From Escherichia coli (GTDB taxonomy: Bacteria; Pseudomonadota; Gammaproteobacteria; Enterobacterales; Enterobacteriaceae): a DNA stretch of 64,000 nt. The DNA lies in NCBI RefSeq assembly GCF_003334315.1, contig NZ_QOWR01000006.1; one strand, written 5' to 3'. Shown piece by piece: positions 4,998 through 27,459 of this stretch (the stretch's first letter is position 1; each line of letters begins with the position of its first letter). The notes below the pieces were generated by a model, which had not been told where the DNA came from, did not search any database, and saw only the letters and a list, made by a program, of their open reading frames with translations. Made by a program: the position numbers and the translations under genes.

Positions 4998-5276
4998 ATG
5001 ATCGCGGAGTTTGAATCACGCATTCTGGCATTAATCGACGGTATGGTTGACCATGCCAGTGATGATGAGTTGTTTGCCAGTGGGTATTTGCGTGGCCACC
5101 TGACATTAGCCATCGCAGAACTGGAAAGTGGTGATGACCACTCCGCTCAGGCGGTGCATACGACCGTTAGCCAGAGTCTGGAAAAAGCCATTGGTGCCGG
5201 TGAATTGTCGCCGCGTGACCAGGCGCTGGTGACCGATATGTGGGAAAACCTGTTTCAGCAGGCGTCACAGCAGTAA
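4998..5276 (+). CDS. yfcL: Small conserved protein YfcL, 92 aa
   Basis: Recognised sequence; last gene of the co-directional cluster before a REP/BIME element. Confidence 0.85.
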
Positions 5277-24657: not shown

Positions 24658-25431
24658 ATGTCCGAGAATAAATTAAACGTTATCGATTTGCACAAACGCT
24701 ACGGCAAACATGAAGTGCTGAAAGGGGTCTCACTGCAAGCGAATGCCGGAGATGTAATAAGCATCATCGGATCGTCGGGATCGGGGAAAAGTACCTTTCT
24801 GCGCTGCATTAACTTCCTCGAAAAACCGAGTGAAGGGTCGATCGTGGTCAATGGCCAGACGATCAATCTGGTGCGCGACAAAGACGGTCAACTCAAAGTC
24901 GCCGATAAAAATCAACTGCGCTTACTGCGCACACGCCTGACGATGGTATTCCAGCACTTCAATCTCTGGAGCCATATGACGGTGCTGGAAAACGTCATGG
25001 AAGCGCCGATTCAGGTGTTGGGCCTGAGCAAGCAGGAAGCGCGCGAGCGGGCGGTGAAGTATCTGGCAAATGTCGGGATAGACGAACGTGCGCAGGGGAA
25101 ATATCCGGTGCATCTTTCCGGCGGTCAGCAACAGCGTGTTTCTATCGCGCGGGCGCTGGCGATGGAACCGGAAGTTTTACTGTTTGATGAACCTACCTCG
25201 GCGCTCGATCCTGAACTGGTAGGCGAAGTGTTGCGTATTATGCAGCAACTGGCAGAAGAGGGGAAAACCATGGTGGTAGTGACTCACGAAATGGGCTTTG
25301 CTCGCCATGTTTCTACTCATGTCATTTTCCTCCATCAGGGGAAAATAGAAGAAGAGGGCGCGCCGGAGCAGTTATTTGGCAACCCGCAAAGCCCTCGTCT
25401 GCAACGGTTCCTTAAGGGATCGCTGAAATAA
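24658..25431 (+). CDS. hisP: Histidine/Lys/Arg/Orn ABC transporter ATPase HisP, 257 aa
   Basis: Walker [13 protein letters not shown] signature LSGGQQQRV, Walker [12 protein letters not shown]. Confidence 0.97.
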
Positions 25432-25437
25432 TTTCCT

Positions 25438-25467
25438 CTCCGGTGGCTAACGCTGCCGGAGTATTTT
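25438..25467 (+). terminator. Probable terminator downstream of hisP
   Basis: ctccgg...ccggag stem with a long loop, followed by tatttt; the structure is not ideal. Confidence 0.45.
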
Positions 25468-25627
25468 CATGGGGAATTTGCGAGTCAGCTTCCGCTGAAA
25501 TGTAAAAGTTACAGTCCGCTAAAAATACTTCTGAATTCGCTGTCCAAAGATAAAAACTGCCTGCTGCATTGGGTGTTAATCGTGGTTATTGTCGCGTCAT
25601 CTTAAATTTGAGGGGTGACGGAACGCC

Positions 25628-26518
25628 ATGACAATATCGACAACTTCCACGCCGCATGATGCGGTATTTAAATCTTTTTTACGCCATCCAGACACCGCGC
25701 GGGATTTTATTGATATTCATCTTCCCGCGCCGCTGCGCAAACTGTGTGATTTAACGACGCTTAAACTGGAACCAAACAGTTTTATTGATGAAGACCTGCG
25801 GCAATATTATTCCGACCTCTTGTGGTCTGTGAAAACGCAGGAGGGAGTGGGTTATATTTATGTAGTGATAGAGCACCAAAGTAAGCCGGAAGAATTAATG
25901 GCTTTTCGCATGATGCGTTATTCCATTGCGGCAATGCAAAACCATCTTGATGCGGGCTATAAAGAGCTTCCATTGGTGATCCCGATGCTGTTTTATCATG
26001 GTTGCAGAAGTCCTTATCCTTATTCACTCTGCTGGCTTGATGAATTTGCCGAGCCTGCTATAGCCCGCAAAATATATTCATCGGCTTTTCCGTTGGTGGA
26101 TATTACCGTGGTGCCGGATGACGAGATTATGCAACACCGCAAAATGGCGCTGTTGGAGTTAATTCAGAAACATATTCGTCAGCGCGATCTGTTGGGATTA
26201 GTCGACCAAATTGTTTCGCTGCTAGTTACAGGGAACACTAATGACAGACAGCTAAAAGCCCTGTTTAATTACGTATTACAAACAGGGGATGCCCAGCGTT
26301 TTCGTGCATTTATTGGTGAGATAGCGGAACGCGCACCACAAGAAAAGGAGAAACTGATGACCATTGCTGACAGATTACGTGAAGAAGGCGCAATGCAGGG
26401 CAAACACGAAGAAGCCCTGCGTATTGCTCAGGAGATGCTGGATAGAGGTTTAGACAGAGAGTTAGTTATGATGGTGACCCGACTTTCACCAGACGATCTT
26501 ATCGCGCAAAGCCACTAA
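25628..26518 (+). CDS. rpnB: Rpn-family recombination-promoting nuclease RpnB (YfcI), 296 aa
   Basis: Recognised sequence of the YhgA/transposase_31-like PD-(D/E)XK family. Confidence 0.85.
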
Positions 26519-26565
26519 TCCTGTAACACCGGGAGTTAACTGGCGGATGTTTGCTGTAAACCACA

Positions 26566-27459
26566 TCAGCGAACGACATCCGCCAGCGCCTCTTCTAAAT
26601 CGTACCAGCGAAACGCAAAACCCGCTTCTTCCAGCCGTTTAGGCAGCGCGCGTTGTCCACCTAATACCAGTACTGAAGATTCGCCCATTAACAGTCGAAT
26701 GGCGGTCGCGGGGACGCGCAAAATGGCCGGGCGATGCAGCGCATGACCGAGCGCATGGGCAAATTGTTCATTGCGTACCGGGTAGGGCGAAACCATATTA
26801 AATGGCCCGCGCAGCTCGTTATCCAGCAGCCAGAGAATACCGTTGACCATATCATCAATATGAATCCAGGCCAGATACTGCCGACCAGAGCCAATCGGCC
26901 CGCCCAGGCCAAGACGAAACGGCGGCAGCATTTTACCGAGAATACCGCCATCCGGTGCCAGCACTACACCGGTACGCAGCAGGCACACTCGCGTTTTGTC
27001 ACTTTGCGCCCGGCAGGCAATTTCTTCCCAGCGAGCGCAGAGTTTATGGGTAAATTCGTTATGCGGCGGTTCCTCTTCGGTAACCACCACTTCACCTAAG
27101 TCACCATAATAGCCCGTTGCCGAGCCGGAAATGAGTACCGACGGTGGCGTGTCGCTGGCATTAATCAAATCGACCAGTTTTTGCGTGATATTCCAGCGGC
27201 TTTGGCAGAGACGCTCTTTTTGCTCGTGAGTCCAGCGTTTATCAGCAATCGGTTCTCCGGCCAGGTTGATTACCGCATCAACGCCGTTGAGGTTGCTTTG
27301 ATCGGCAAGCCCTTGCCATAGTGTCACCCGAGGGCCGAGAACGGAACTGGCTTTCTGCGGGTTACGCGTCACTACCGTAATTTGATGGCCCAGCTCCAGC
27401 AAACGCGGAATCAAATGGCGACCAATTAATCCTGTCCCTCCGGTGATCACTATGTTCAT
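26566..27459 (-). CDS. yfcH: NAD-dependent epimerase-family protein YfcH, 297 aa
   Basis: N-terminal Rossmann motif [12 protein letters not shown]; recognised sequence. Confidence 0.9.

Follow-up and report, generated by a model that had tools for sequence, protein, structure and literature searches.

Genomic context and identity of the locus

The window considered here is a 64,000-nucleotide (nt) stretch of Escherichia coli DNA (contig NZ_QOWR01000006.1 of RefSeq assembly GCF_003334315.1), and the gene of interest within it is rpnB, an open reading frame (ORF) at 25628-26518 on the plus strand that starts with ATG, encodes 296 amino acids and carries, in the same frame, the start signals of a second and shorter coding sequence, rpnB_S. 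An earlier reading of this DNA, made from its letters and a program-made list of ORFs (hereafter the original prediction), had listed the same ORF, named it rpnB, placed it beside the his transporter operon, assigned it to the YhgA/Transposase_31 family and described it as intact and full length, and all of these calls hold. The frame is uninterrupted and keeps its catalytic residues, and the encoded protein is identical at 295 of 296 residues to RpnB of E. coli K-12 MG1655 (YfcI, b2305), the one difference, a conservative substitution, being I118 here and L118 in K-12, a leucine that is carried only by K-12 among the 13 alleles compared. The genes hisJ, hisQ, hisM and hisP lie upstream, with the stop codon of hisP (24658-25431) at 25431 and the start of rpnB 196 nt further downstream, and yfcH (26566-27459, minus strand), the product of which is a TIGR01777 oxidoreductase, is convergent with rpnB. 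The resulting gene order, argT-hisJQMP-rpnB-yfcH-folX-yfcG, is the same as in MG1655, and the whole window is collinear with MG1655 positions 2390048-2449166 in reverse orientation at 99.6-99.8% identity (about 59 kilobases, kb).

Family membership is equally clear, as PF04754 (Transposase_31, YhgA-like) matches residues 8-209 over model positions 1-202 of 203 with an E-value of 5.8e-91, and the window protein obtains 188.1 bits from NCBIfam TIGR01784 ('Rpn family recombination-promoting nuclease/putative transposase'), for which the curated cutoff is 52.1, values that chance would not produce. The RpnA equivalog model, on the other hand, reaches 468 bits and stays below its cutoff of 583, indicating that the window protein is not RpnA. 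In several E. coli chromosomes a segment with 100% identity to the 1134-nt interval between hisP and yfcH is annotated as rpnB by the Prokaryotic Genome Annotation Pipeline, and the identity of the ORF as chromosomal E. coli rpnB is therefore near certain. A minus-strand ORF of 81 amino acids (25782-26027) is also present within rpnB; nothing supports it as a gene.

The nuclease domain

The long product, RpnB_L, retains the residues on which the activity of this family is known to depend. D11, D63, E82, Q84, R94 and D165 are invariant when the window protein is aligned with RpnA, RpnB, RpnC and RpnE of K-12, and the first five of them are also invariant across a 28-sequence alignment. The loss of catalytic residues had been set beforehand as grounds for rejecting the prediction, and none was found, all six positions being kept. 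It has been demonstrated for RpnA that the substitutions D11A, D63A, E82A and Q84K abolish all phenotypes, that R94A and Q84A abolish promotion of recombination while toxicity is retained, and that D165A, in the PDDE motif, yields a protein that is hyperactive in vitro (Kingston et al. 2017, PMC5350276). Magnesium-dependent endonuclease activity in vitro has been demonstrated for RpnA only (PMC5350276), and the published evidence for RpnB consists of SOS induction and toxicity in vivo (PMC5350276, PMC10400941). By analogy with RpnA, RpnB_L would be a DNA endonuclease of the PD-(D/E)XK type in which an unusual E-x-Q replaces (D/E)-x-K.

Structural prediction is weakly consistent, in its direction, with such a fold. 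An AlphaFold2 model of moderate confidence, built from the 28-sequence alignment, has an alpha-beta-beta-beta-alpha-beta core in which D63 stands directly ahead of the strand formed by residues 64-70 and E82 and Q84 lie within the strand formed by residues 76-84, a placement that would be expected for a PD-(D/E)XK site. The weak top matches of this core in a Foldseek search were mostly PD-(D/E)XK nucleases (PaqCI, Nt.BspD6I, Card1, Cap4 and XisH), none of them significant.

The nested gene rpnB_S

The internal ATG at 26357 is codon M244 of rpnB and is preceded, 6 nt upstream, by the Shine-Dalgarno sequence AAGGAG; the full-length start has merely a weak Shine-Dalgarno-like GGA, 5 nt upstream. 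Each of the five K-12 rpn paralogs (rpnA to rpnE) has the same GGAG and ATG in its DNA, and M244 is shared by all 28 homologues aligned. The internal frame runs from M244 to H296, a length of 53 amino acids, and carries an aspartate at residue 29, which fits the published 'D29 stop' control of RpnB_S (PMC10400941). The signals for an internal start are thus present in the window, and translation from them is taken from K-12, the RpnB_S region of which is identical to that of the window.

The short product is a small helical domain. A phmmer search against 7th0_A, the crystal structure of RpnA_S in the Protein Data Bank (PDB), aligned residues 244-295 of the window protein (E 0.0026), and a Foldseek comparison of the predicted fold with 7th0 gave a probability of 0.99, a template modelling score of 0.72 and 40% identity. 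Precomputed annotation assigns PF27070 (HTH_Rpn_C) to close homologues, among them a 93%-identical protein of Escherichia marmotae; the copy of Pfam used for the profile scan did not report it for the window protein. The top matches of the PDB sequence search were designer pentatricopeptide-repeat proteins, with E-values down to 3e-10. These were rejected as a repeat-summing artefact, as the score adds up some ten weak alignments, one to each repeat, of residues 253-287 (26384-26488), and no single stretch is significant. Such an artefact, falling on the helix-turn region of RpnB_S, could mislead automated annotation.

Experimental work has been published for K-12. Zhong et al. (2023, PMC10400941) showed that rpn genes contain a second gene within the first and that RpnB_S and RpnB_L are both detectable from the K-12 chromosome, RpnB_S through a chromosomal sequential peptide affinity (SPA) tag. 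RpnB_L alone (RpnB_L*) inhibits growth more than the co-expressed pair RpnB_LS, and RpnB-dependent SOS induction, followed with dinD-lacZ, is suppressed by RpnB_S and not by RpnA_S. Mutations of the ribosome-binding site and start at the equivalent site of RpnA abolish RpnA_S (all PMC10400941). Ribo-RET start peaks are present in all rpn genes. With respect to function, the original prediction described a recombination-promoting nuclease, and this part of its account is outdated; it overlooked the nested antitoxin rpnB_S and with it the toxin-antitoxin and antiphage reading (PMC10400941), and the gene-within-gene toxin-antitoxin model should take its place.

Table 1. Features of the rpnB locus, with positions in the window.
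Feature	Position	Strand	Basis
Terminator-like hairpin after hisP, 10-base-pair stem with 7 G-C pairs, then TATTTTCA	25438-25461	+	Terminator scan; -19.6 kcal/mol, z -3.7
rpnB-bearing presence/absence block, about 1.0 kb	25538-26539	.	Alignment with FCI5 empty site
rpnB, full coding sequence (RpnB_L, 296 amino acids; predicted PD-(D/E)XK DNA endonuclease and toxin)	25628-26518	+	ORF, profiles, alignment, synteny
PF04754 domain, residues 8-209	25649-26254	+	Profile match, E 5.8e-91; catalytic positions inside
D11 codon, catalytic	25658-25660	+	Read from DNA
D63 codon, catalytic	25814-25816	+	Read from DNA
E82 codon, catalytic	25871-25873	+	Read from DNA
Q84 codon, catalytic	25877-25879	+	Read from DNA
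R94 codon, catalytic	25907-25909	+	Read from DNA
D165 codon, PDDE motif	26120-26122	+	Read from DNA
Shine-Dalgarno AAGGAG of rpnB_S	26345-26350	+	DNA sequence; GGAG conserved in five paralogs
rpnB_S, putative nested antitoxin gene, 53 amino acids, small helical domain (HTH_Rpn_C)	26357-26518	+	M244 invariant; 7th0 match
Hypervariable part of RpnB_S/RpnB_L	26390-26476	+	Insertion point and substitution cluster, MEKGFDHEVILTL; alleles, homologue tails
Stem-loop in rpnB/yfcH gap, 11-nt perfect arms	26540-26586	.	Repeat search; -31.8 kcal/mol, z -5.5

Variation and selection within rpnB

Comparison of 13 E. coli rpnB alleles, with dN/dS (the ratio of nonsynonymous to synonymous substitution rates) estimated by the Nei-Gojobori method, revealed that the two parts of the gene evolve very differently. 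Between pairs of alleles, amino-acid divergence amounts to 0.008 for the PF04754 domain and 0.017 for the linker and reaches 0.135 for RpnB_S, so that this last part diverges 16 times more in protein than the nuclease domain, and nucleotide diversity follows the same order (0.018, 0.032 and 0.087, respectively). The dN/dS ratio is 0.05 for codons 1-243, indicating that the nuclease part is under strong purifying selection, and 0.43 from codon 244 to the end; relative to codons 1-243, the S part has a roughly 19-fold higher dN and about double the dS.

The differences are concentrated in a limited number of forms. Five of the 13 alleles carry an insertion of four amino acids 11 residues past M244 (following residue 254), where the window reads AMQGKH and other strains read RNDGLILGKR, and three S haplotypes are present in the set, the window carrying the K-12 type. 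The second haplotype has its four extra residues 11 positions after M244, with REEGRNDGLILGKREE in place of the window sequence, while the third (the EKGFDHEVILTL type) is set apart by a cluster of substitutions at residues 271-283, where MEKGFDHEVILTL replaces the window letters. It has been reported that the S region is hypervariable, its length shifting in steps of four amino acids 8-20 residues past the internal methionine (PMC10400941). In 100 full-length homologues of at least 61% identity, the total length is divisible by four in 83 (296, 300, 304 and so on up to 320), and the tails measure 53, 57, 61, 65, 69, 73, 77 or 81 amino acids and are built of xxxG repeats (LQEG, KQEG), so that the published four-amino-acid-repeat behaviour is reproduced for the RpnB lineage. 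This comparison shows that the window allele is a minimal-length form.

It is conceivable, though rather doubtful, that the three S haplotypes represent mutually incompatible antitoxin specificities that balancing selection by phages maintains in the species and recombination exchanges, that RpnB acts as an antiphage nuclease at native expression, and that it has been lost from the 12% of genomes in which a deletion scar is left. Specificity classes of this kind would account for the raised dS as well as the raised dN of the S region.

An Rpn homologue of 361 amino acids from E. coli, labelled 'ISNCY family transposase' at NCBI (P0028), carries two S-type tails in tandem (MTIAERLRQEGHQIGWQEGMHEQAIKIALRMLEQG... 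twice), and to judge from its sequence an rpnE-type gene seems to have fused with its downstream small gene, one resembling rpnESs/ypaA; a fusion event of this kind is mentioned by Zhong et al. (PMC10400941).

Presence, absence and decay of rpnB

Counting a match over at least 80% of the 1134-nt hisP-yfcH interval as presence, the interval was matched in 4745 of 5426 complete E. coli genomes, with all matches chromosomal and none on plasmids, while hisP and yfcH are contiguous without rpnB in 670 of them (about 12%). The median number of places per genome is one and the maximum two, the one record inspected being a single copy split by IS1; the sampled rpnB loci all lie between hisP and yfcH, and a 93%-identical rpnB occupies this site in Escherichia marmotae as well. 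In strain FCI5, which represents the empty site, the intergenic region between hisP and yfcH is 159 nt long, and alignment with it places the boundaries of the rpnB-bearing block at about 25537/25538 and 26539/26540.

The nature of this block bears on the suggestion that rpnB is a domesticated or decaying transposase, that is, the remnant of an ISNCY-like insertion sequence between hisP and yfcH. The Pfam family is named Transposase_31, an NCBIfam model described as 'ISNCY family transposase' gives 460 bits (under its cutoff of 583), and genomes either have or lack the gene as one discrete block of about 1 kb. However, neither terminal inverted nor direct repeats were found at or near 25538 and 26539, the search around the block giving only short internal matches at chance level, and comparison of the window with the FCI5 empty site revealed no target-site duplication at the block junctions. 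The original prediction had proposed that the flanks be inspected for remnants of inverted repeats; there are none at the block ends, and the transposase link proves to be historical naming only. The single copy per genome, the shared site in 4745 genomes and in E. marmotae, and the absence from plasmids are likewise at odds with an insertion sequence, as are the strong selection on the nuclease domain and the conclusion of Zhong et al. (2023, PMC10400941), who found nothing to indicate autonomous transposition and consider it very unlikely that Rpn proteins are transposases.

The empty site itself argues in the same direction, as it holds an internal remnant of rpnB and would be a deletion rather than a site that awaited insertion. 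In FCI5 (5107-5141), a filler of about 27 nt and the next bases align to rpnB codons ~148-159 (window ~26070-26104) at 29 of 35 positions, the core 21-mer has a score of 15, the best of 200 shuffles having reached 14, and the right junction falls within TGG(T/C)GGAT, which is common to the interior of rpnB and the left arm of the downstream hairpin (26540-26550). Because of this remnant and of the presence of rpnB at the same site in E. marmotae, the one empty-site sequence, with its borderline score, points to a deletion scar, with ancestral presence followed by loss. We consider it very unlikely that rpnB is a former insertion sequence.

Beyond clean deletion, rpnB is disrupted in individual strains. 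In NZ_OY754409.1 the gene is interrupted by IS1, and the allele of strain 8600 (L013, 197-1087) has a stop at W66, with the RpnB_S frame, its Shine-Dalgarno sequence and its ATG intact, potentially an orphan antitoxin left after loss of the toxin. These two cases, the 670 genomes that lack the gene and the failure to find a good sigma-70 promoter could be taken to mean that rpnB is dispensable, heading for loss and currently without function in the window strain. On the other hand, the frame in the window is intact and one residue away from that of K-12, the catalytic residues and the internal start are conserved, dN/dS over codons 1-243 is 0.05, and both proteins are detectable from the K-12 chromosome (PMC10400941), so that we give this possibility hardly any credence.

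Transcription signals and flanking elements

The terminator-like hairpin that follows hisP (Table 1) ends the his transporter operon, which makes rpnB a separate transcription unit. An internal promoter for a short and more abundant rpnS transcript has been reported from differential RNA sequencing (dRNA-seq; PMC10400941). The best relaxed sigma-70 match ahead of the internal start is 8/12, with its -10 hexamer at 26140, and is not convincing. Given the expression reported in K-12, both rpnB promoters must be weak or non-canonical.

The stem-loop in the gap between rpnB and yfcH (the gap being 26519-26565) overlaps the stop codon of yfcH and is retained at the FCI5 empty site; it was rejected as an intrinsic terminator of either gene, a T-run being absent on both strands. 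The pairs yfcH-rpnB, rpnA-bioH and rpnC-panC are among 165 published convergent overlapping-transcript pairs ('excludons') of MG1655. Three of the five K-12 rpn genes (rpnA, rpnB and rpnC) thus appear in that list, each lying very close to a housekeeping gene that converges on it, and these overlaps may reflect read-through of the abundant rpnS transcript. The neighbours of rpnB in the window are housekeeping genes, defence genes having been sought by reading the annotation only.

Proposed mechanism and biological role

The two-protein toxin-antitoxin arrangement is well supported by the sequence signals found here together with published experiments on an identical S region, and we regard it as highly probable that rpnB is a gene-within-gene toxin-antitoxin module whose function is most likely antiphage. 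RpnB_L would be the toxin, a magnesium-dependent nuclease with little sequence specificity by analogy with RpnA, and when unchecked it would damage DNA and thereby induce the SOS response and inhibit growth. Translation from the ATG of codon 244, served by its internal ribosome-binding site, would yield RpnB_S separately and probably in greater abundance. RpnB_S would bind the matching domain of RpnB_L and block the toxin, the variable helix determining the specificity. An infection or a physiological cue would then free RpnB_L from RpnB_S and permit antiphage action. Phage defence is the most likely role of chromosomal RpnB, a role proposed by extension from the plasmid-encoded RpnP2.

An alternative view, closer to the name of the family, is that RpnB is mainly a factor of horizontal gene transfer, its DNA breaks aiding RecA-independent integration of incoming DNA. 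It has been demonstrated that overexpressed RpnB raises RecA-independent recombination 19-fold in a conjugal assay and induces SOS (PMC5350276), and the intact catalytic residues are compatible with a recombination-promoting nuclease. However, the effect has been seen on rhamnose-driven overexpression only, a strain without rpnA, rpnB, rpnC and rpnD has an unchanged recombinant frequency (PMC5350276), and the overexpression constructs unknowingly co-expressed RpnB_S (PMC10400941). In addition, a role in recombination leaves the hypervariable, self-matching inhibitor domain unexplained, which an arms race or defence role fits better. The recombination role stated in the original prediction accordingly stands for overexpression and not for basal recombination, which rpn deletion leaves unaltered (PMC5350276), and as the main function of RpnB it appears improbable.

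A number of observations weigh against a nuclease-based toxin-antitoxin module with an antiphage function, or against parts of this proposal. With respect to the nuclease, the AlphaFold2 model has a mean predicted local distance difference test score of 61.5, a moderate confidence (70-82 over residues 10-125), and a Foldseek search of the nuclease core against the PDB gave no match at E<=1e-3. With respect to expression, strict and relaxed sigma-70 scans upstream of the full-length start (25462-25627) found no match of at least 9/12 and none that is convincing, the scan before the internal start (26080-26356) likewise found no consensus match of at least 9/12, and the internal promoter reported from dRNA-seq was not located by these scans. 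The raised dN/dS of the S region stays below 1 in the 13 alleles, so that positive selection is not demonstrated, and the doubled dS of this part may reflect exchange of alleles by recombination. The gene is dispensable, being absent in about 12% of genomes and a pseudogene in a few. A scan with PADLOC-DB v2.0.0 (2023), a library that predates or omits Rpn, returned 0 families, and antiphage protection has been published only for plasmid RpnP2, where it is modest (about 10-fold) and condition-dependent (PMC10400941).

The gene, its family, the catalytic residues, the nested antitoxin and the four-residue repeat variation are already published (Kingston et al. 2017; Zhong et al. 2023). The locus is nevertheless a clean annotated example of a case in which standard annotation, like the original prediction, lists a single protein although two are made; the name 'transposase_31' is still misleading, and rpnB goes unflagged in curated defence libraries such as PADLOC 2.0.0. 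The small additions made here are the 19-fold higher dN in the antitoxin part, the three S haplotypes and the probable deletion scar in about 12% of genomes.

Other features of the window

Downstream of nuoN, the segment 59142-60780 departs from K-12: a block of about 2.6 kb comprising yfbN, yfbO and yfbP is absent, yfbM is present, yfbL is fragmentary (a 116-amino-acid ORF at 59789-60139, followed by a stretch of merely 80% identity) and yfbK is largely missing. elaD (60783-61994, minus strand), followed by rbn/elaC and elaA, comes directly after this yfbK/yfbL remnant. The only Rfam match in the 64-kb window is the nuoG RNA cis-regulatory motif RF01748 (48926-48968, plus strand; 48 bits against a gathering score of 33), which lies inside the nuo operon, and no tRNA genes were found in the window.

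Comparison with known systems

The closest counterpart is RpnB of K-12, which is the same gene, with an identical RpnB_S region, hisP upstream and yfcH convergent downstream in both. RpnA (YhgA) is 66% identical to the window protein and has in common with it the PF04754 domain, the catalytic residues, the internal Shine-Dalgarno sequence with its ATG start codon M244, and an S domain of three helices that is homologous. Unlike rpnB, however, rpnA lies in a feoC-rpnA-bioH locus, its short product has 49 rather than 53 amino acids, and RpnB is more toxic than RpnA (PMC5350276). The antitoxins are not interchangeable either, as RpnA_S fails on RpnB and RpnB_S fails on RpnA (PMC10400941).

RpnP2, from a plasmid of E. 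coli ECOR13, shares with RpnB, as judged by description, the family and the L/S gene-within-gene architecture, and it is the only Rpn with demonstrated antiphage activity, directed against the T-even phages T2, T4 and BASEL #40, about 10-fold in extent and seen mainly at pH 8.5 (PMC10400941). As in classical type II toxin-antitoxin systems, a protein antitoxin binds a toxic enzyme and neutralises it in a cognate-specific pair; in contrast to type II systems with a separate, adjacent antitoxin gene, the antitoxin of RpnB is translated from an in-frame internal start. RpnB_S is the toxin's own C-terminal domain sequence, and toxin and antitoxin must therefore co-evolve (PMC10400941).

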